Source: Eledone cirrhosa
Taxonomy: Eukaryota
Direction: 5' to 3'
Length of the DNA: 64,000 nucleotides
Assembly (NCBI GenBank): GCA_964016885.1
Contig: OZ024742.1
Coordinates: 353,896,001 to 353,960,000 of the forward strand
Shown here one piece after another: positions 1,829 to 57,297 of the stretch (positions are counted from its first letter, which is position 1; the number at the start of each line of letters is the position of its first letter). The position numbers and the translations under genes are program-made. The notes under the pieces were generated by a model. It was not told the DNA's origin. It ran no database searches and saw only the letters and a list, made by a program, of their open reading frames with translations.

Positions 1829-1935
<107 letters not shown>

Positions 1936-2067
1936 ATACTTTGGGAGGGTCATGTTGCCAATAAGAAACACACGCACAAGCTGCTTTCAATTCAATTTAT
2001 AAATTTAGGAATTTATAAATTTCCGGTTGGTTGGTTGGTTCCACAACCAGATGGTTGTTTATATATT

Positions 2068-2110
2068 GTCAAAGTGCTTTCGTCACACATTATGTGACCT
2101 CTTCAGTGGC
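2068..2110 (-). ncRNA. Minimal type I hammerhead ribozyme, family A pLTR
   Basis: GCCA CUGAAGA G GUCACA-UAAUG-UGUGAC GAAAG-CA-CUU UGAC. Confidence 0.7.
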
Positions 2111-2179
2111 TGGGGATTTGTGCTTTGTGTTTTTAATAGAATAAAGTCATGGTATGATAGCAATAAATAGCAGAGTGTA

Positions 2180-2710
2180 ATGTTCATCGATACAACCCCT
2201 AGTGGCGAATTAACCTACACATATAGAAGGGGCCTAGATAAACATAAACTCAATATTAAGATAGTAGAAAGACCAGGTGCCTCCATAAAAATACTTATTA
2301 GCAAGACATACCCTTTTCAAAGACCTCCCTGTATAGATAAGAAATGTATATTCTGTAAATTAAGCCCCATATTAACTGTAAAACTAGAACTGTAGTATAT
2401 AGCATAAGATGTACTGAAGGACAATGTAGAGATAAACATAGAGTGTACATAGGTGAGAGAGCTCGTAGTATAGGGGAACGGATAAATGAACACTGGCGAG
2501 ACCTTCAAGATAGTAAAGAATCATCTGTACTTTACCAACATGCTAAACTAGAACATAAGGGTAAATTAGAGAACATAGAAATAAAAATAGAATCTACACA
2601 CAGAAAAGACGCAATGTTTAGACAAATCACAGAGGCAATACACATAAATGAATTACAACCAAAATTAAATAGAAAACATGAGTAGAACAGCAACATCACA
2701 ACTTACAATT
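2180..2710 (+). pseudogene. PLE GIY-YIG endonuclease fragment, frameshifted
   Basis: ORFs 2180-2395 and 2443-2685; Cys-rich linker CIDKKCIFCK followed by YIGE motif. Confidence 0.85.
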
Positions 2711-2929
2711 AAGGACAAAATGAAAACACACACGCACATAGAACAAACAACCAACCAGTAACATGTAAATAAACAAATAAATAAACGAATATAAACACAC
2801 ACAGGCCCCTTCTCAATGTGTAAGATAATTCACCACTAGGAGGTTGTATCGATGAACATTACACTCAGGTATTTATTGCTATCATACCATGAGTTTATTA
2901 TATTAAAAAAACAAAGACAAAAATCTCCA

Positions 2930-2972
2930 GCCACTGAAGAGGTCACAGAATGTGTGACGAAAGCATTTTGAC
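2930..2972 (+). ncRNA. Minimal type I hammerhead ribozyme, family A pLTR
   Basis: CTGAAGA 2934-2940; stem II GTCACA/TGTGAC; GAAA; tiny stem III; TGAC. The homologue at 18661-18705 restores stem I as GTCA/TGAC. Confidence 0.7.
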
Positions 2973-3186
2973 TATATATAAACAACCATCTGGTTGTGGA
3001 ACCAACCAACCAACCAACCGGAAATGTATAAGTTCATAGATTTATAAATGTATTATAATAAATTGAAGTGAAACCATCTAGTGCGTGTGTTTCTTATTGG
3101 CATCATGACCCTTCCAAAGTATAACAATATCGGTTTCAACACACGTTTTCAGATAAAGAATCTTGCTAAACAAATTCAGAAACGAA

Positions 3187-3264
<78 letters not shown>

Positions 3265-3267
<3 letters not shown>

Positions 3268-4710
3268 TAATTTAATATAACTACTAACATAAGCGCTCAG
3301 ATGTACGCTAATGCCAGCAAATACACAGGTTATGTCATAGTACCTAGGTGGTCCAATGCAGGAGAATGCAGAACAATAATATAAAAGACGTAAAATAAGA
3401 AAATTTAAAAAAAAAAAATTTTTTTTAAATTTACTTACTTACTTAAATTTTCACTCCAACTAATTAATTTCTGCAATGGGATAAAGACAGTTACGTAATG
3501 AACTGTTGATAATTTCATTGCGTCATCAGGGAGGTCATTCTCAGCCGAGTCTCCAGGCGATGCGCGGACACTGGAGACTCATATAAAAATAATAATAATT
3601 CGGTAAATGGAACAGCTATCGAGGACTGGATTCCAGCTACCGAAAATTCTCACTGCTACTGATCATATGGCCGATTCTAAAGAATCAATCACGTGACACA
3701 GAGGCTAGTCAGTAGGAATGGGATGGTAAGATGACAGGCACCTACTAACACCCCCAAAAAATTTAGAAGTGGTTTTGGCAGGTTTACTCGACAAATCAGT
3801 GATTTGGAGATAAATATAGATAATTTTATATATCTACTAACATAAGCGCACAGATGTACGCTAATGCCAGCAAATACACAGGTTATGTCATAGTACCTAG
3901 GTTGTTTAATGCAGGAGAATGCAGAACAATAATATAAAAGACGTAAAATATTATTATTATTTTTATATGATTCCCCAGTGTCCGCGCATCGCCTGGAGAC
4001 TCGGCTGAGAATGACCTCCCTGATGACGCAATGAAATTCTCAATAGTTCATTACGTAACTGTCTTTATCCCATTGCAGAAACTAATTAGTTGGAGTGAAA
4101 ATTTAAGTAAGTAAATTTAAACAAAATTTTTTTTTTTTTAATTTTCTTATTTTACGTCTTTTATATTATTGTTCTGCATTCTCCTGCATTGAACCACCTA
4201 GGTACTATGACATAACCTGTGTATTTGCTGGCATTAGCGTACATCTGTGCGCTTATGTTAGTAGATATATTAATCATCTATATTTATCTCCAAATCACTG
4301 ATTTGTCGAGCAAACCTGCCAAAACCACTTCTAAATTTTGTTTGGAGGTGTTAGTAGGCGCCTGTCATCTAACCATCCCATTCCTACTGACTAGCCTCTG
4401 TGTCACGTGATTGATTCTTTAGAATCGGCCATATGATCAGTAGCAGTGAGAATTTTCGGTAGCTGGAATTCAGTCCTCGATAGCTGTTCCATTTACTGAA
4501 TTATTATTATTTTTATATGAGTCCCCAGTCTCCGCGCATCGCCCTGAGACTCGGCTGAGAATGACCTCCCTGATGACGCAATGAAATTCTCAACAGTTCA
4601 TTACGTAACTGTCTTTATCCCATTGCAGAAACTAATTAGTTGGAGTGAAAATTTAAGTAAGTAAGTAAATTTTTCAAAAAAATTGTTTACAAAAATGTTC
4701 TTATTTTATG

Positions 4711-4718
<8 letters not shown>
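3265..4718. mobile_element. ORF-less ~550-bp HHR-bearing repeat (family D): 1.25 units on minus, then 1.4 units on plus; retrozyme-like
   Basis: agataatt...ctactaacataagcgc recurs at 3265 and 3819; ttattattatttttatatga recurs at 3951 and 4501; the halves are reverse complements; (TA)n on both flanks. Confidence 0.85.
4010..4052 (+). ncRNA. Minimal HHR-like motif, family D (also 4560-4602 plus, 3497-3539 minus)
   Basis: CTGATGA-C-GCAA-T-GAAA-TTCTC with distal stem I AATGACCT/AGTTCATT; the proximal stem I is imperfect. Confidence 0.5.
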
Positions 4719-4762
<44 letters not shown>

Positions 4763-7070: not shown

Positions 7071-7995
7071 CATTGCAGGGCGAACAAATTGTTGCGAACA
7101 AATTGTTGCCACTGGATAATTCAGCTGTCGACATTTGATGTTTTTTAAGCTCCAACGACGTCGGGAAACATAAAATCATCACCACTTTATTTATTATAAG
7201 CGCCTCTCCTGATCAACATTCAGAAATATGAGCAGCAAAGCTCTATTTGATGTTTAACATAAATGGATATCACAAAGGTGCACATAACACATACGTTGAG
7301 AAATATGAAAGGTATATGAATTTCGCTGTGAGGTCCATATAGGCAGTGTTGTATTTTAAACATCTGCTATAAATTAAAATCAACATGCAGATATTCGTGT
7401 CGATATCTTTTTACCAAACTTCTATGATTGTAACTTATTTGATAAGATAGCGTAAAACATTTCTACAATTGCATTAAATCACCTAAAACGATCTCTTCGC
7501 AATGTATAAAATGTTTGACTTAAGGTGACGGACATCGCTGCAGCTAACATGACATTATAAATGATACATTTTACCTGTATCTAAATTCGGCTAGAAACAC
7601 CGTATTGCAAACTTACGATGGGGATTTATGTGGTGTAGCTAAAAATGGCAGTATTCTAAATGCAATATATAAATGTCGAAGACAGAAAATTATCAATTGT
7701 TACGATTATTTAAGAGGAAATGAATTTGAAAAATTTCATTACGAAGCATGAAGAAGTATATGACCGGTGATAAATGTATGACATAACAAGGGAAAGGTAG
7801 AAATATTGATCAGAAGAATCTGCGGCAAAAGCCTCGTCTAAGAATATAGTAAATACATTGGTAGAATTATGTATTCCTAGAAATACGTGTAATGTCTCTT
7901 ATATGTGAAGTTGACGATAGCTTATGGGAATTTTACATAGAAATGTGTTACATGGGGGGGGGGGTCACGAGTGCACACTATTCATGTATTTGAGA

Positions 7996-14859: not shown

Positions 14860-15576
14860 CGTACAAACATATACGCTTACATACATACATGCATGCATAC
14901 ATACATACCTACACTTATGTATAATATTTTATCAACTCGTATTCTAAATCTAATTCCGTCTAATAAATTTGATTCTATTTAATGAATGTAAATTTACAAA
15001 CTAAATATCCTCTTCAAGTTATCCAATAAAACCTACTTATCTAATAATTCTAATAGAAAAAAAATGAGATTATTACAGGATACATTTCTATATATCCCTT
15101 CAGAAATTATGGCATTGCTTTATTTTTTTCTCTTTTCAACGCATAGATTTATATTTGTAATTACTGCGTTTATATATCACTAATATCGACTTTCCTATCT
15201 CCAGCTTCGATGTTTAAGTCCACAATTCTATTCCAGCAATCTTTAATTAAATATATTCTAGCTACTTGTATACACATATTTTAGATTGTTGATATGTAGT
15301 TTAAAACGTCAGCTTTAACATATAAAAGGGATTTATTGTATTTTATGGTAACAAAATTGAATCCAAATAATGTTTGAGGATCGAGAGAGGAAAATTAATA
15401 CATTAAACAATATGTTGTACAACATTGCTTTCCTCATGTGATGATATTGTTTTATTTTTAACTTAGTCTGTATTATATTGAAATTAATACTGCAATATAA
15501 ACTAATGAATTCACTTGCAATTGTTACACATTTTCCTGCATATATACGTGTATTAATCTTGATATATATATATATT

Positions 15577-16590
15577 TAGAAGATCACGTTAAGGGTGAAA
15601 GCAGCGATTCTTTGCTTAAACTTTAATCTGTTGTTTTAATAATATATATATATATATATAGTAATAATAATAAATTTGAAGACTAACATCGAAAGAGTGC
15701 TCGACAAGTATACATATATATCAATATATAAGAAGCGTAGAGCAAATATTTATTAAAATAACAGATTAAAGTTTAAGCAAAGAATCGCTGCTTTCACCCG
15801 TAACGGGATCTTCTGAAACTAATAAAGTCAATCTGTAAACGCAGAAGTCGATATTTCAAAAAACCTTGCAACCGGAGAAAGACAGGAAAACGATACTTTG
15901 GTTCTTGGAAACGTTCCCTGGCAAAGAACGGGAAAGAACGAATATAATACGTTATATATTTGGAGCGGTGAAAAACAATTACACGCACAGACAAAACCGC
16001 GTCTATGGTATAAAAGAAGTTGTAGACTATTAGGTAGCTCATAGGGACGTTCTCTGGCAATGAACGGAAAAAAGAAAGATAATACGTCATATGTGAAGCG
16101 TGGAGAACAATAGCACGCAAAGACAAAACCACGTAAATGGTATAACTGAAGTCGTAGACTAAAATTCTAAGTAGATAACCGAATGATTCTCGGCTACAGA
16201 GTTAAGAAGAAAGTAAATGAAATACAGAGGTAATTGAAATTAAATAAATACATACACGCATCCATATACGTACATACACAAGCATACTCGAACACACTCG
16301 CCATAGGTATACAAGTACACGCACATATAAATATGTTAGTGTGTACACAAATAATTAAATAAACGTATATAAATAAATAAATACGTATATAACAAGCGCA
16401 CACACATACCTACATGTAAATACACATATGTTCGGAGACGTATGTCAACCAAAACACAGCCGACATACGTACGAACCCGCATACACACACAGACGCAAAA
16501 CTCACGTATGCACATAGTTTCAGAAGATCCCGTTAAGGGTGAAAGCAGCGATTCTTTGCTTAATCTTTAATCTGTTATTTTAATATATAT
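15577..16590 (-). mobile_element. ORF-less HHR-bearing element, family B: long copy 15661-16515 on minus, with short inverted copies at both ends
   Basis: Reverse complement of 19192-20035; internal ~140-bp tandem duplication; (TA)n flanks. Confidence 0.85.
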
Positions 16591-16605
16591 ATATATATAT
16601 ATATG

Positions 16606-18838
16606 TCGTTTCTGAATTTGTTTAGCAAGATTTTTTTATCTGAAAACGTGTGCTGAAACCGATATTGTTATACTTTGAGAGGGTTATGTTGCAATAAAAA
16701 ACACACGCACCAGTTGCTTTCGCTTCACTTTATTATAATAAATTTATAAATTTAGGAATTTATAAATTTCCGGTTGGTCGGTTGGTTCCACAACCAGATG
16801 GCTATTTACAAACTGCATAATATGTAGTATGGATGTTGTGTCCCTGTATTCATCTATTGGCGTGGATTTTGCTGTGGAGAAATGCTTAGAAATGATCAGT
16901 GAGAGCAATGTTGAATTCCATGGGATTGGTACCAGTGAGCTGGGATTCCTACTTAAAATTACCTACAGTAATAATTATCTAGACACATCTGACCTTAGCA
17001 ACCTGTGCCCTACAAGACCGGCAAGAGGCAGATCACCTACCATTACCTCAATGGCCAAGAAAACCCACACAGATAGATCGAACGGGTGGACCAGAGACAT
17101 ACGGACCCCCGAAAACCACGATGAAGTAAAGAAAATGATTGCACATGCGGTGGGGGCCAGCATAAAATTAACCCTTAAGGAACATATGTTCGAATGTAAT
17201 GGAAAAACATATCCCCAAGAGGAGGGAGCAGCTCTTTGTTTTAGCATTGCAGGCGACATAGTTAACCTATTCATGGTATGGTGGGACAGTAGACTTAAAC
17301 TTAAACTTAACGAACAATTAGAAGACCCCTTAACCCTGATAGTGTACTCCTGCTACGTTGATGATATAAACATCGTAGTTAAAACACCCCTACTAGAGAA
17401 CAGTCAGGAATTAGAGAAAAACACAATGGAAAGCATCCAGCAAGTAGCTCACTCCATCCACCAGAGTATTAGAGTTACTATAGACTACTAAACCAAATAC
17501 CACAACCATCGATTACCAGTACTAGACACAGAGCTCTGGTTCCTCCATTCCCATTATGCCAAACCTATGACTTCCAAATATCTAATCTACCGAAACTCAG
17601 ATGATTCGGACCATACCAAAATCAACATACTGATTGCGGATTTGGTATGGGTGATGAGAAACGTGTCCTGCATGTGCAACCCCTAAAAACTAGAGATACA
17701 CATATAACACTTCATCCACCGTATTCAGTTCTCTGGTTACAATCAGAGAGATAACATCACAGTATATAGAGGAGCCAGAACGAAATGGGGAAAAAATGGT
17801 AAATAATGACACAAATGGGCCCTGCCCCTTGTATAGATGCACATTTTGGAATAGAATAGTAAGAACTAGGAGTAAGGCTAATAGAATAAACTCATGGTAT
17901 GATAGCAATAAATACCAGAGTGTAATGTTCATCGATACAACTTCTAGAGGTGAATTAGCTTACAAATTTAGAAGGGGCCTAGATAAACATGAACTCAATA
18001 TTATACGGTAGTAGAAAGACCAGGTACCTCAATAAAATCACTTATTAGCAATACATACCCTTTTCAAGACCTCTCTGTATAGATAAGAAATGTATAATCT
18101 GTAAATTAAGCCCCATATTAACTGTAAAACTAGAAATGTAGTATATAGCATATGATGTACTGAGGGACAATGTAGAGAAAAAAATGTAGTGTACATAGGT
18201 GAGACAGCTCGTAGTATAGTTGAACGGATAAATGAACACTGGCGAGACCTTCAAGATAGTAAAGAACAATCTGTACTCTACCAACATGCTAAAATAGAAC
18301 ATAAGGGTAAATTAGAGAACATAGAAATAAAAATAGAATCTACACACAGAAAATACGCAATGTTTAGACAAATCACAGAGGCAATAAACATAAATGAATT
18401 ACAACCAAAATTAAATAGAAAACATGAGTGGAACAGCAACATCACAACTTACAATTAAGGACAAAATGAAAACACACACGCACATAGAACAAACAACCAA
18501 CCAGTAACATGTAAATAAACAAATAAATAAACGAATATAAACACACACACAGACACCCGGATGTAACACATGCACAAACTAAACACACAACACACACACA
18601 ACCAAAATATGGCGTAGGACAGAACAAAGGAGAGGCACAAAAACAAAGAAAAGAATTCTCAGTCACTGAAGAGATCACCGACTGTGTGACAAAAGAAATT
18701 TGACAACATATAAACAACCTTCTGGTTGTGGAACCAACCAACCAACCAACCGGAAATTTATAAATTTATTATAATAAATTGAAGTGAAAGCAACTGGTCC
18801 GTGTGTTTCTTATTGGCAACATGACCCTCCCAAAGTAT

Positions 18839-18842
<4 letters not shown>
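16606..18842 (+). mobile_element. PLE family A, 5'-truncated, with inverted 5' pLTR
   Basis: 16606-16800 is inverted relative to the 3' pLTR (18715-18840 and 2985-3188); RT and GIY-YIG lie between; degenerate HHR at 18661-18705. Confidence 0.9.
16829..18458 (+). pseudogene. PLE reverse transcriptase plus GIY-YIG, disrupted
   Basis: DVVSLYSSI; YPQEEGAALCFSIAGDIVNLFM; CYVDDI; LPVLD; YIGETARSIVERINEH. Confidence 0.9.
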
Positions 18843-18883
<41 letters not shown>

Positions 18884-18888
<5 letters not shown>

Positions 18889-20030
18889 TAAAATAACAGA
18901 TTAAAGTTTAAGCAAATAATCGCTGCTTTCACCCTCAACGGGATCTTCTGAAACTAACAAAGTCAATCTGTAAACTCAGAAGTGTATATTTCATAAAATG
19001 TTGCAACCGGAGGAAGACAGAAGACGATACTTTGGTTCGTGGAAACGTTCCCTGTCAAAGAACAGGAAAAACGAATATAATACGTCATTAATATGAGCGG
19101 CGAAAAACAATTACGCGCAAAGACAGAACCACGTTTATGGTATAAAAGAAGTCGTAGACTAATGTTCTCTTAGGTGGTTTATAGAGACGCAGGTTCGTAC
19201 GTATGTAGGGTGCGTGTATATGTGTACTTCATGTTTTGGTTCACGTGCTTCCGTACATTTGTCTATTTACATGTAGGCATGTGTGCGCTTGTTATATATG
19301 TATTTATTTATTTATATACGTTTATTTAATTATTTATTTATTTGTATACACGCACACACACATACACATATTAATATGTGCGTGGTTTTGTATAACTATG
19401 GCAAATGTTTTCCCGTATGTTTGTGTATGTACGTATTTGCATGCGTGTATGTATTTATATAATTTCTATAACCTTTGTAGTGTATTTCATTTACTTTATT
19501 CTTAACTCTGAAGCGTAGATTCATTCGGTTTCCTAGTTAGAATTTTAGTCTACGACTTCAGCTATACAGTTTACGTGGTTTTGTTTTTGCGTGCAATTGT
19601 TCTCCACGCTCCACATATGACATATTATCTTCGATTTTCCGTTAATTGCGAGAGAACGTCCCTATGAACCACATAATATAACATTAGTCTAAACGTGGTT
19701 CTGTCTTTGCGCGTAATTGTTTTGCACCGCTCCTATTAATGACGTATTATATTCGTTTTGCCCGTTCTTTGCCAGGGGACGTCACCACGAACCAAAGTAT
19801 CGTCTTGCTGTCTTCCTCCGGTTGCAACGTTTTTTGAAATATCCACTTCTGCGTTTATAGATTGACTTTGTTAGTTTCAGAAGATCCCGTTACGGGTGAA
19901 AGCAGCGATTCTTTGCTTAAACTTTAAACTGTTATTTTAATAAATATTTGCTCTACGGTTCTTATATATTTGATATATATTTATCCTAATCGAGCCCTCT
20001 TTGGATTTTCTTCTTAAAATGTATTATTAT

Positions 20031-20035
<5 letters not shown>
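18884..20035 (+). mobile_element. ORF-less HHR-bearing element, family B, with ~300-bp inverted 5' arm
   Basis: 18884-19190 is the reverse complement of about 19690-19947; (TA)n on both sides. Confidence 0.87.
19859..19930 (+). ncRNA. Type I HHR fold with CAGAAGA (U4A) core, family B (also 15763-15834 minus, 16516-16573 plus, 18898-18969 minus)
   Basis: AGTTT CAGAAGA T-CCCG-TTA-CGGG-T GAA AGCAG-CGATTCT-TTGCT T AAACT; extended distal stem I. Confidence 0.7.
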
Positions 20036-20108
<73 letters not shown>

Positions 20109-20712
20109 GTTATATAGTAAGGTGCATTATTTTTTGTGTAAAATGGTCCAATAAATCTATGTTAGCAATATTAAATTCTCCACGCTTTTGTATATCTCCA
20201 ATTCCATTCAAGGGAACAGCTAGATGATGTAAAACGGAGTATAAGTATCAAAATGAAAATCCGAAGGCAAGATAAAATTCCAATCATTTAATCACGAGAC
20301 ATGTTTCAATAAGTGATAGATCGATTGTGAAGCCATGATCGATTATAATTGATCTCATCAGGTGAATTTGAATTGTCTTCAAATTCTTGATACGAGGGTG
20401 AACAAATAACGATCTTCCCTCACAGAATTCATTCCCTCATATGAAGAAACACCAGACAGAGACACGGTGACTGCTATTAATTTCAGTTGAGGTCATACAA
20501 GTTGTCAGACTTTTATCGCTGCAAAAGACGCTGGACATCAATCAAATATGTAGGGATATAGTTAATATGAGTGGGTACACACACACACCACACCCATATA
20601 CACAGGCTCGAGTTTAAAGAAATATATACATATATATATACACACATCAACACAGTATCATATATTACATATATATAGATAATGTGGGTAATATTATATA
20701 AACAATATTATC

Positions 20713-28912: not shown

Positions 28913-29736
28913 ATAAAATATTTTAAAAATGATGAATAAAACAATGAACCAGTTCCTTATATTAAACAAAAAAAGTTCACTATTTAACGATCGTTTCTAG
29001 GATATATATGTGTTAGAATTGGCATGCATATTCAACAGATCTATGTACAAAATTATACAAAATTATACAAACTATCAAAATTAAATATACATACCAAACA
29101 CATATATATGCCGTCTTCAGAAATAATGAAATATATTTATTGATAATAACAACAATTCCAAATTACAGGTCTGTTTGGGAACAGAGTTCAAATTGACCAA
29201 TGAAAATACAAAAAGTTTATACAGTTAGGTGTGTGTATATATATGTGTGTAAGTAACTTCGTTCAGAGATATGCATAAAGATATATGTTCACATGCATAC
29301 GCATGCCAAAAAGATATATGTAAATACACAAATTCAAGGCTAATGTCTCTGTATGTTTATAATCTACAGATAAAATACGTATACACATATAAATATAAAA
29401 TAAATATATACACACATTCATATACTCACACATATACGTACATTCACACACACACGCGCGTATACGCATAAACATACACACAACCACGAACATACATACA
29501 CACATACACCCCCACACACATATATATGTGTATATACTATTATCATAAGCATATGGACATTAATGCGCGCACATAAACACTGCCACACATATTTAGATCC
29601 AGATACAGAAAGTAGGTGGGGGGTGGGGAGAAGAGGTCAGTACTCACCGGTGTCTGCAGACTGCCTATTTATAAATGTATCTATAAACTTAGAAATAAAA
29701 AGAAAAGAAAAAGAAAAAAAGAAATATATCAAGGAA

Positions 29737-29819
<83 letters not shown>

Positions 29820-30114
29820 AACAAGTAAAATATAAAATATACATCGATATACATACATATACATATATATATATATATACACATACACACATATACATAC
29901 ATATACATACACATATACACAAACACATACATACACATACATATACATACACACACCATATAAATACACATACACATACACACACGCATACATATAGAGA
30001 CACATACATATACACATATAAGTACATAGACATATACACATATACACACACATATATATATATATATATATACACATACACGCATACATATATATATATA
30101 CATTCACAACACAC

Positions 30115-30193
<79 letters not shown>

Positions 30194-30266
30194 CACACAC
30201 ATATCTACACACATATATAAACACACTCATGTATATACACACATACACATACATACCCACATATAA

Positions 30267-30301
<35 letters not shown>

Positions 30302-30307
30302 TACACA

Positions 30308-30365
<58 letters not shown>

Positions 30366-30443
30366 TATATATATACACACACACGTACACACACATACAC
30401 ATACACATATTTAAAGATATATATACACACACACACACATATA

Positions 30444-30496
<53 letters not shown>

Positions 30497-30796
30497 CATA
30501 TATACACACACATACATACTCATACATAGACATACATATATACTCACACACACATACACACATACATATACGCATATATACACATACATACACATCCAAG
30601 TATGCGTATATACATACAAACACCACCACACGCTCACACAACTCAGACATACATAGATAAAGGGATATGCATACAGATATATACATATATAAATAGAGAT
30701 ACATATACATATATAAATATATACACACGTACACACACAAACACACATACATACACATACATACACACATACATATATATACACACACATACACAC

Positions 30797-30871
<75 letters not shown>

Positions 30872-31023
30872 CATATATATAAACAAATAAAGAAATAAGA
30901 TAAATAAATAAATAAATTAATTAATACACACAGTCAGACAAATATGCACACACATACATATACATATATATATATACATACACATATATATATACATATA
31001 TATATATATACATACACACATAC

Positions 31024-31054
<31 letters not shown>

Positions 31055-31071
31055 TCAACTACAAATATATA

Positions 31072-31148
<77 letters not shown>

Positions 31149-32022
31149 TATATATATACACACACCCACATATACATGCGCACATACGTACACATATACA
31201 CATACACACATATACACATAGACATATACATGTGCATACATATACATACACACATATACCCACATAAATACATAGATACATATATATATACACATATATA
31301 TACACATATATATATATACACACATAGATACATATATATATATATATATATACACACAATCATACACCCTTATTTACATGCGCACATATGTGTTTTTATA
31401 CTCACATATAAACACCCAAACATACATACATACCTACATATACATACATACATCCACGCTTACAAATACAATTAATAATAGTAGGGGGGAGGGAGGGGGA
31501 AGGGGATTATAGTAAATATAGGTTTCAAGAAACATAGAACATTAATCTGCATTTAGATCATAATATGTGTTTAAATAGTTTCAGTATTAGGAAATGTAAG
31601 AAAGAAGGCAAAATTATGCATTTAAATATAAGTATACCATTAATTATATGTTAACTAAACTAAAGATAGTTAATATATTGATTTCTAAGGTGTATACTAC
31701 TTAGGTTTATAATATTTGAAGCGGAATTTTGAAGTTAAATAGTAGTAGAGTATTAATTATAGTATAACTAAATTAAAATTATTAACGTTATGGTATCAAT
31801 ATTAGGAAATGAATTTAGTAATAGGGAAAAAAACAAATAAAGTTTTACATCGGTAGTAGAATATAAATTATAGGTTAACTAAATTAAAAATTATATATTA
31901 ATTTCTATAGTATATGTTAATTAGGTTTATAATAATTAAAACAGATATTGTATTTTATCTATAGTAGAATATAATTATAGGTAAACAGAAATTAAAATTA
32001 ATACATACACATATACATATAC

Positions 32023-35454: not shown

Positions 35455-40959
<5,505 letters not shown>

Positions 40960-43939: not shown

Positions 43940-44187
43940 TATATATATATATATGACATAGAATGGCTTCTGCAAGAAGGACTAGAAATGTTTCATTCAA
44001 AGGTAATCGTAAGGAAAGATTATATATTTTAAATTAGAGAGTTCTAGACCTGTAGAAGCCATTTGTGTATTAAACATGATGCTTACATGCTACTAATCTA
44101 TTGAGTATCTGATGTGTTATGGTCCACCTGATAACTTACCACACTATGTTTGTTATGTATATATACTTTTTTTTTCTTTTCTTTTTT

Positions 44188-44368
44188 TTAAATAACAGAT
44201 TAAATTTTACGCAAAGAATCGCTAACGTTAAGGGTGAAAGCAACGATTCTTTGCTTAAACTTTAATCTGGTATTTTATTAAATAGTTGCTCTAGGGTTCA
44301 TATGTATTTGATATATATTTATTTTTATCGAGCCCTCTTTGGATTTTAGTCTTCACATTTATTATTAT

Positions 44369-44372
<4 letters not shown>
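44188..44372. mobile_element. Family B terminal fragment with short fold-back
   Basis: taagggtgaaagcaacgattctttgcttaaac preceded by its inverted copy. Confidence 0.8.
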
Positions 44373-44430
<58 letters not shown>

Positions 44431-49529: not shown

Positions 49530-49534
<5 letters not shown>

Positions 49535-49740
49535 TGACCATTTAAAGTTTAAGCAAATAATCGCTGCTTTCACGCTTAAGGGGATCTTTTGAAACTTAAG
49601 GGTGAAAGCAGCGTTTCTTAGGCTTAAACTTGAATCAGCTATTTTAATAAATATTTGCTCTACGGTCCTTATATATTTGATATATATTTATCCTTATCGA
49701 GCCCCCTTGGGATTTTAGTCTTCAAATTTATTATTATTAT
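49530..49740. mobile_element. Family B terminal fold-back fragment
   Basis: tcgctgctttcac...gtgaaagcagcg inverted pair plus the family B tail. Confidence 0.8.
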
Positions 49741-49856
49741 TATATTTGGTTTTTGAATGTCACGTGAATTAGTACCATACAATTCCCGCCAATTCGTGTT
49801 GCAAACATTCTTGTAGTTAAAACAATATATCTATGTATACATGTACGTATGTATAT

Positions 49857-51280: not shown

Positions 51281-51323
<43 letters not shown>

Positions 51324-51326
<3 letters not shown>

Positions 51327-51709
51327 CGTTTCTGAATTTGTTTAGCAAGATTTTTTATCTGAAATCGTGTGTTGAAACCGATATTGTTATACTTTGGGAG
51401 GGTCATGTTGCCAATAAGAAACACACGCACCAGTTGCTTTCACATCAATTTATTATATATTTATAAATTTATAAATTTACAAATTTGCAAACTTATAAAT
51501 GTCTGGTTGGTTGGTTGGTTCCACAACCAGTGTGACGAAAGGACTATGACTATATATAAACAACTATCTGGTTGTGGAACCAACCAACCAACCAGAAATT
51601 TATAAGTTTGTAAATTTGGAAATTTATAAATTTATAAATATATAATAAATTGAAGTGAAAGCAACTGGTGCGTGTGTTTCATATTGGCAACATGACCCTC
51701 CCAAAGTAT

Positions 51710-51715
<6 letters not shown>
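51324..51715. mobile_element. Family A pLTR-only fold-back (no ORF)
   Basis: Inverted pair of the family A pLTR joined near 51530, inside the HHR; (TA)n on both sides. Confidence 0.88.
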
Positions 51716-51749
<34 letters not shown>

Positions 51750-52873: not shown

Positions 52874-54003
52874 GATATTAAATAAATGGAAACTATATTT
52901 ATAAAACCATATTTATATCATTATATATATTTCAGGGATATCATATTAACAATATGTTATGCCTTCTTCAGACAAAATACAATATAGACAGTTTTATAGA
53001 TAAATAGATTTGACATACCGTTCAACATCGACTTGTATTTGAAAAAGTTGATTTGGCAGTGAAAAATTGTAAACAGAAAGAAAGAAAGAAAGAAATAAGG
53101 AAAGAAAGAAAGAAAACGAAGAAAAAGAAGAAAAAGAAGAAATGCATGCAACAAAATAGAGAGATGGAAAGATAGATAAAGAGAAGAACTTCATGTAAAG
53201 AAACAGAGAGAGATATATAGAGAGAGGAAATAGATAGAGATAGATATATATAGAGAAAAGTAGGTAGTTGAACGACGTATCAATGATACATTTATTTATT
53301 TATTTATTTATTTAGCTCTAGTATTAATGTAAGGGAGATATATGTGGTTAGGAAAGAAACCAGCCGTTATATAGAGAGAAAAATGAAAAGTAACCAGACT
53401 TAGGCGAGGCTGAATTTAAAAACCCTATGTTTTAATGTAGAAATATTAGTTCGTATAAAAACCAGGCACTATAATGTAAATATCAGTATTCCAGAATGAG
53501 ACACGTATCTATAATGTGTGAAAAGTAATGATCTTATGTCTAGTTTTAAAAATTCATATGTTTATATGATAACTACAAACATCGATGTGAATTTACGTGA
53601 TCAACTCTGCAAACCCCTATTTCACACGGAGAACATTCTCATTGTGCTATAAAAATTTAAGTATACATATATGTGTATATATACACATATATATAGAGTC
53701 TATATTAATTTTAACAATACTATTCTTGTCTTTACTCTACATGATTATCTATCAAGCAGAAATAGAGGACAGATTTCAATATATTAATAAAAATATCAGA
53801 AACAAAAACAAAAAATAATAATAATAATAATAATAAAAAATAATAAATAAAATAGAAAACTAAAACATATTACATATTAAAAATGAAAATTAAAAATATT
53901 AAAAAATATTAAAATAATAAAAATAAAAACATAATATGCCACGCAAATCGACCACAAAGATCAACCCTTCAAAATTAATTGACAATATATTGCCAAGTTC
54001 ATT

Positions 54004-57233: not shown

Positions 57234-57297
57234 ATTTTGTCTGAAGAAGGCAAAACATATTGTTAATATGATATCTCTGAAATATATATAATGAAAT
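57234..57297 (+). ncRNA. Type I HHR, family E pLTR (mirror copy 52915-52978 minus)
   Basis: ATTTTGT CTGAAGA AGG..CATATT/AATATG..TCT GAAA TATATATA ATGAAAT. Confidence 0.8.

Follow-up and report, generated by a model that had tools for sequence, protein, structure and literature searches.

A 64,000-nucleotide stretch of the genome of Eledone cirrhosa (GCA_964016885.1, contig OZ024742.1, positions 353,896,001 to 353,960,000 of the forward strand; hereafter the window, with positions counted from its first letter) contains dispersed copies of a repeat, here called family B, that carry a type I hammerhead-like fold. The anatomy of this abundant repeat is that of a Penelope-like element (PLE), and family B is the end module that bears its hammerhead. 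The core reads CAGAAGA throughout the family, with A in place of U at position 4 (U4A). We assign a probability of about 0.6 to the reading that this core is a crippled or very slow hammerhead kept as a cis signal, as the pseudo-long terminal repeat (pLTR) of the element. Judged by its letters, the A4 motif likely cuts poorly or not at all.

Position 4 and the fold of the family B module

CAGAAGA cores were located at 15809-15815 (minus strand), 16521-16527 (plus), 18944-18950 (minus) and 19878-19884 (plus), each followed by T, CCC-loop-GGG, T, GAAA, GCAG-loop-TTGC, TT and AAACT. Read as RNA, the module comprises proximal stem I (AGUUU/AAACU), U10.1, stem II (CCC/GGG), U11.1, GAAA, stem III (AGCAG/UUGCU) with a loop of 7 nt, and U17, with CUU as the site. 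Beyond a 7-nt bulge, a distal stem I of 9 bp is present in three copies, one pair being broken in the 19878 copy, and the arm at 16516 is without this extension. In the 19878 copy the fold spans 19857-19932 on the plus strand, with three helices around the junction and stem I open: distal stem I (19857-19865/19924-19932) is separated by the bulge from proximal stem I (19873-19877/19919-19923), the core follows with A4 at 19879, stem II lies at 19886-19888/19894-19896 with a U.U mismatch at 10.1-11.1, GAAA at 19898-19901 and stem III at 19901-19905/19913-19917, and the predicted cut falls at 19918/19919.

Position 4 is A in all six window copies that reach it, including a decayed copy at 49591 (CAAAAGA) and the arm at 15577, which begins there. 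C3, G5, A6, G8, A9, G12, A13, A14, A15.1-U16.1 and H17 are present in each of the four intact-core copies, and two features of the hammerhead consensus are lacking: U4 of the CUGA uridine turn (here A) and a purine-pyrimidine pair at 10.1-11.1 (here U.U). A hammerhead descriptor with position 4 left free gave three matches in the 64 kb (19878, 18950 and 15815), all of them family B, and missed the 16521 copy through a broken stem I pair; the same descriptor matched none of 3000 dinucleotide shuffles of the 846-nt element. The four CAGAAGA copies in a hammerhead fold that the original prediction had placed here are thereby confirmed with their coordinates, as are its stems I and III and the CUU site, whereas its stem II (CCCG/CGGG) fits only two of the four intact-core copies. 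Its description of these copies as otherwise diverged did not hold: they differ at 1-4 of 70 module positions and are the arms of two insertions.

According to the folding models, the hammerhead fold lies about 2 kcal/mol above the minimum free energy structure in the 15815 and 18950 copies and further above it in the other two. Compared with shuffled sequences it is no more stable than random (z from -0.99 to +0.74). Pairing of distal stem I has a probability near 1 in two copies, and stem I reaches a probability of at most 0.03 in an RNA that begins at 19873, which is without the distal stem and favours other folds. No intermolecular hammerhead formed when two copies were folded together. 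The modelled fold is thus feasible, not dominant. Across nine near-identical copies none of 22 pairs had changed on both sides, a divergence too small to be informative on covariation. A stem III of 5 bp with a 7-nt loop also sets the module apart from minimal hammerhead ribozymes, in which stem III is absent or of 1-2 bp with a palindromic loop and which act only as dimers. A type III or trans register cutting at 19872/19873 was rejected by eye, stem III being unpaired. Of 163 Rfam matches in the window, the 150 that were listed include no hammerhead family and consist of microRNA models placed on inverted repeats and on runs of (TA)n and (CA)n.

Whether A4 is the family letter was assessed in four of 23 available sequencing runs, from four studies with three organism labels, which were compared with 19760-20030 at 80% likeness and a 2% threshold. 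Matches were obtained from 12,721 contigs of run X1, 13,876 of 12,467,656 raw reads (0.11%) of X21, 36 contigs of X5 and 9 contigs of X6. X21 has the species label of X1 and comes from a separate study, X5 and X6 have two other organism labels, and X1 is possibly not independent of the source of the window itself. Family B is very abundant, and these depths give no copy number. The variant table was used in 40 of its 148 rows, the lowest best share among them being 9.9%. Private changes of the 19760-20030 copy (e.g. 19893, 19928) appear in it near 100%, and among these 40 rows there is none for 19879. If the rows rank by share, U at position 4 is probably below about 10% in X1 and X21; one of five A>T places in X1 and five of ten in X21 lack a listed row, which makes the bound there indirect and counts against the reading favoured here. 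The A>T places of X5 and X6 (four in each) are all explained by other positions, so that U4 is below 2% there, on few contigs.

Upstream variants at 19812, 19818, 19835, 19843, 19844, 19856, 19866 and 19870 reach 40-70% in X21 and mark at least two subfamilies. U4 in either would give about 25% at 19879 and hence a listed row, so neither appears to carry it. Position 19893 is A in about 99% of the X1 depth and in 5616 of 6099 X21 reads, which makes the family stem II CCC/GGG with loop GUUAA, not CCCG/CGGG. In these runs A4 is family-wide and not local. The expectation that the substitution had been present in the active master is supported by A in reads and contigs of four studies, in two subfamilies defined by upstream positions and under two other organism labels, and the family letter proved to be A, not the U of a CUGAAGA consensus.

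That U4A is a local accident spread by local duplication, with a canonical family consensus, has next to no probability left. It would draw on the loop II C common to the 15815 and 19878 arms, which are perhaps closely related, but it is largely refuted by thousands of reads and contigs from four studies without a majority T at 19879, and by A in the distant 49591 copy. The shared C of these two long tailed arms (15815, minus; 19878, plus) is rare genome-wide (about 1% of the X1 depth) and is a hint, in their letters, of a common minor source or of local conversion.

In X5 and X6 some contigs diverge directly after the core, with loose ends behind the equivalent of 19886. A hairpin of 7 perfectly paired bp is contained in the X5 loose-end consensus, and in one X6 contig CAGAAGA is retained but loop II differs; these are possibly sister families with a different stem II, at a consensus agreement of only 0.66-0.68. 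Pattern scans of metagenomes gave 15 loci, none with flanking stems and all judged to be chance, and scans of the same type gave no match in the genome contigs or the viral contigs searched.

Insertion anatomy, arm starts and the likely state of the ribozyme

Self-comparison of the window assigned the four intact-core copies to two insertions. Each two-armed insertion consists of head-to-head arms, one with a short end (equivalent to about 19947) and one whose tail adds about 88 nt and reaches about 20035. Arms of either type run into (TA)n; this division of short end and tail holds in all four two-armed insertions of the window. Insertion 1 has a long tailed arm at 15660-16515 (minus; core 15809-15815) and a 75-nt inverted short-end arm at 16515-16590 (plus; core 16521-16527) that starts at the first base of proximal stem I. 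Insertion 2 has its inverted short-end arm at 18881-19187 (minus; core 18944-18950) and its long tailed arm at 19188-20035 (plus), with the short end at about 19947 and the tail at about 19948-20035, followed by (TA)n. The family ends that had been predicted near 15577, 44188 and 49530 were also recovered. Insertion 3 joins a short-end arm beginning within stem III (44184-44223, minus) to a tailed arm that begins within stem II and ends in (TA)n (44225-44390, plus). In insertion 4 a short-end arm that begins at the first base of proximal stem I and keeps A4 in its decayed core CAAAAGA (49530-49596, minus) meets a tailed arm beginning within stem II (49596-49745, plus). A solo short-end arm at 15575-15647 (plus) is flanked by two (TA)n runs and begins at about core positions 3-4.

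Counted back from the short end along the same strand, the hammerhead-type fold occupies nt 15-90. In X21, 2246 reads pass from 19947 into (TA)n. Opposite-strand joints made up 14 of the 15 joints seen (of 40 in total), no head-to-tail module pair occurs in the 64-kb window, and neither a direct pLTR nor a partial tandem was found upstream of the body in the two truncated long arms. The window is AT-rich, and (TA)n and (CA)n runs abound in it. Endonuclease-positive PLEs are marked by inverted copies of the end, a tail confined to one arm and a bias towards microsatellites (PMC8557442, PMC3846280). In 796 X21 reads and 27 X1 contigs, the family B tail is joined to one other sequence before the equivalent of 19946. 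The start of that sequence resembles a Helitron 5' end, and a composite repeat or frequent insertion at the short end is proposed.

The places where arms begin bear on cleavage. Among the 14 opposite-strand joints, ten have one side at 19873-19881, several of them with 1-3 read starts, and their partners are scattered and mostly without microhomology. Short arms mostly begin about 40-46 nt upstream of the predicted cut. The X21 depth rises from about 2800 in the 19860s to 5900 in the 19880s, while across the predicted cut it moves only from 7171 to 7291 (<2%). Three window arms start at the equivalents of 19872-19876, and none of nine starts at the predicted cut. As the arm starts lie upstream of the cut, the templates would have been mostly uncleaved; such a pattern does not prove U4A inactive. 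The arm starts are most simply read as run-off where an RNA begins near A19873, and TTAGTTT at that place fits an initiator consensus. An internal promoter with an initiator has been described for Penelope (PMC2377424). An alternative is a stall at a weak hairpin.

It is likely that the module is kept because the same bases serve as RNA start and as signal for a Penelope-type reverse transcriptase/endonuclease. By analogy with the Poseidon element (PMC11167929), the endonuclease would nick both strands of AT-rich DNA, each nick would prime reverse transcription at one of two internal RNA sites, the short end or the tail end, and the two cDNAs would be joined head to head. The template would be mostly uncleaved, and 75-nt arms would result from run-off at the RNA 5' end near A19873. 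U4A may have arisen once in a master lineage, at no cost if cleavage is not needed for insertion.

The CUU site is a weak one, and together with U4A and the U.U closing pair it favours a crippled or very slow ribozyme. In a scan of all single and double mutants of one type III hammerhead, mutants of the CUGA turn had low activity except for a C3/G8 swap (PMC9901934). Catalytic hammerhead mutants left Poseidon insertion unimpaired in vitro, no reads began at its cut site, and protein is required for its hammerhead to cleave (PMC11167929). Canonical hammerheads are absent from Naiads, which proliferate nonetheless (PMC8557442), and Penelope hammerheads are often weak in vitro (PMC4209133). The original prediction had left the choice between a functional core variant and a non-cleaving fold kept as a signal. 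The latter fits better, given arm starts upstream of the cut, the invariance of loop III, the lack of compensatory change and the activity of CUGA-turn mutants, and neither is proven.

Several observations weigh against a crippled core. The module varies less than the sequence upstream of it: within the 40 of 148 rows, a minor share between 9 and 91% supported by 50 or more read starts was seen at 12 of 105 positions upstream and at 1 of 60 in the module, a CpG (Fisher p = 0.03), rows with fewer starts being omitted. The two variants nearest the fold sit in the stem I bulge and not in its pairs, and the other core letters and all stems are intact in family B, as is also expected of a working ribozyme. 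At the joint 19878/19919, where the inverted repeat of stem I leaves 3-5 bases ambiguous, one arm begins at the predicted cut (50 reads, 2 starts), and short-end arms made from the cut would be just 29 nt long and possibly under-counted. U10.1-U11.1 is a tolerated natural variant and a viroid with U4C stays infectious (PMC3088659). As for the uniformity of the module, older variants could have been diluted by short copies of a younger master, and since loop III is as constant as the core, the constraint covers the whole 60-75 nt and is not clearly specific to the hammerhead.

Taken up together, such points would suit a working natural variant with an A4 core, slow alone and rescued by a contact between loop II and stem I or by the element protein, that processes the RNA; we regard this as unlikely. 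Beyond the intact core and helices, the near-certain distal pairing in two copies and the uniform module, it could call on U1.7 and a 3'-terminal loop II A in the family majority (a contact described in general terms in PMC3376415), on the protein dependence of Poseidon and the tolerance of U4C in the viroid, on the single joint at 19919, and on the X5/X6 loose ends at 19886 as a hint of the same core with another stem II. Against it, three sub-optimal features would coincide in one ribozyme, CUGA-turn mutants are of low activity, depth does not step at the cut, loop III is as invariant as the core, the 22 pairs of nine similar copies show no covariation, and an RNA from 19873 would be without the distal stem and favour other folds. 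The further proposition that this high-copy cephalopod lineage holds the first natural hammerhead that still cleaves although U4 is a purine, rescued either through contact of stem I with loop II or by a protein of the element itself, and kept across subfamilies and related species, is somewhat less probable again.

A4 could also belong to a splice acceptor, in which case CUGAAGA would be restored in spliced RNA only, through joining to an upstream exon with a terminal CUG. A branch-like TTGAC, a pyrimidine-rich run and a CAG ending at 19880 would suit it, as judged against the splice consensus motifs. The D. virilis Penelope intron ends at helix I, so that spliced and unspliced hammerheads differ there (PMC4209133, PMC2377424). 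But neither long arm has a CTG/GT donor upstream, the 15 of 40 joints include no GT..AG skip, and the listed loose ends show none in common at 19881, which leaves this reading very improbable.

Coding content and neighbouring repeats

The claim that no open reading frame (ORF) is attached to the copies stood for the arms themselves. No coding remnant was found in the roughly 850 nt of the family B arms; the copies do not have their longest frames in common, these frames match nothing in Pfam above the cut-off, and a 135-amino-acid frame had no relatives in a translated search. Between the arms, however, a broken reverse transcriptase and GIY-YIG region of another family lies at 16810-18458. 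The stronger statement, that the element is ORF-less, was not established, because the long arms end at different places: two of them stop about 40 nt apart, in low-complexity sequence and without an upstream copy of the end module, like 5'-truncated copies of a longer, possibly coding element.

A reading compatible with a crippled core, and one to which we give somewhat less than even odds, is that the copies are 5'-truncated ends of an autonomous PLE with a 3' untranslated region of more than 700 nt. The differing ends of the two long arms, about 40 nt apart, speak for it, other arms are cut at many places, and strong 5' truncation is typical of these elements (PMC8557442). The lack of any coding remnant, shared frame, Pfam match or relative over such a length speaks against it, and in the neighbouring coding family only about 210 nt separate the stop from the hammerhead.

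That neighbour, family A, is a broken PLE at 16605-18846 (plus) in the same (TA)n tract. It consists of an inverted tailed pLTR arm (16605-16808), reverse transcriptase and GIY-YIG remnants with stops and frameshifts (16810-18458; Pfam E 0.006 and 0.0005, below the curated cut-off) and a 3' pLTR with the canonical CUGAAGA at 18666. It has the same short-end/tail, head-to-head two-end anatomy as family B, and the best relative of its reverse transcriptase remnant is an Octopus vulgaris protein (63% identity). As families A and B share no detectable sequence, family A is a neighbour and at most a candidate helper. Its hammerhead fold is not the minimum free energy structure. One family A arm starts at the predicted cut (51530, minus) and another 11 nt upstream of it (16808, minus), two arms being too few to serve as a control. 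Further family A sequence is present at 1928-3190 and 51318-51717, and the hammerhead of the family has an apparently long loop III containing TATATAAA.

In all, four Penelope-type insertions of two families lie tail to tail in one (TA)n tract at 15575-20110, forming a 4.4-kb inverted-repeat nest. Canonical CUGANGA hammerhead-like motifs occur in other repeat families at 57241 and 14585 (plus) and at 52971, 42273, 21845 and 52484 (minus), several of them of the minimal type (GAAA then UAU). Three copies of another repeat with CTGATGA (3529, minus; 4020 and 4570, plus) stand in direct and inverted orientation at 3272-4720, and no GAAA stem was recognised behind them. Satellite-like tracts, long and rich in CA/TA, run in opposite orientations at 29400-31300 and 38400-40300; the 98% match of 40575 (plus) to 29120 (minus) across 358 nt points to an inverted duplication of large size.

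Relation to known elements and significance

The closest parallels are the hammerheads of PLE pLTRs (PMC4209133), with which family B shares a type I fold at the element end, an extra or unpaired base after A9, many dispersed ORF-free copies and a low expected activity. The core change reported there for Schistosoma PLEs is U3-A8, whereas family B has A at position 4. Those hammerheads have a minimal palindromic stem III, in contrast to the 5-bp stem III with its 7-nt non-palindromic loop, the short stem II and the CUU site of family B. With endonuclease-positive PLEs (PMC3846280, PMC8557442) it shares the head-to-head arrangement of arms of which one is tailed, and insertion into AT-rich or (TA)n DNA, and it differs from them in a tail of about 88 nt, compared with 30-40 nt, in arms of about 850 nt without an ORF and in its fixed core substitution. 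The tail has its counterpart in the two internal sites at which reverse transcription starts in Anolis Poseidon; the Poseidon protein nicks both strands and extends them, and as in that element the uncleaved RNA would be the template (PMC11167929).

Natural core variants described in PMC3088659 are U4C, A6C, U3-A8, U10.1-U11.1 and U15.1-A16.1, of which U10.1-U11.1 is shared with family B. They are rare single sequences and a purine at position 4 is not named in the available text, whereas family B is a high-copy majority form; the supplement text contains no CAGANGA string, its figures probably being outside the text search. Animal non-LTR retrozymes (non-long terminal repeat; bioRxiv 10.64898/2026.07.22.740005) are likewise non-coding, carry a type I hammerhead and have a proposed Penelope pLTR origin, but they form head-to-tail tandem arrays, unlike the dispersed head-to-head pairs of family B. 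Family B works like the pLTR plus tail module of a PLE and falls outside the strict hammerhead (U4), minimal hammerhead and retrozyme definitions. In the literature covered, neither a natural U4A nor work on the hammerheads of octopus Penelope elements was found, though subscription papers and figure-only supplements could hold one. The fixed U4A core is real, family-wide and apparently unreported, and it is set in an ordinary Penelope-type repeat.

A dead hammerhead in such a repeat would agree with recent work: hammerhead function in PLEs has been called unclear (PMC8557442), and cleavage is dispensable in vitro (PMC11167929). Why PLEs keep hammerheads is put to a natural test by a successful family whose uridine turn carries a fixed change. 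If this hammerhead does not cut, its fold can outlast its chemistry, persisting as a promoter or protein signal through decades of master-lineage evolution or longer. If it does cut, the core consensus and the CUGANGA search descriptors would need widening, and a whole class would have been missed by CUGANGA searches.

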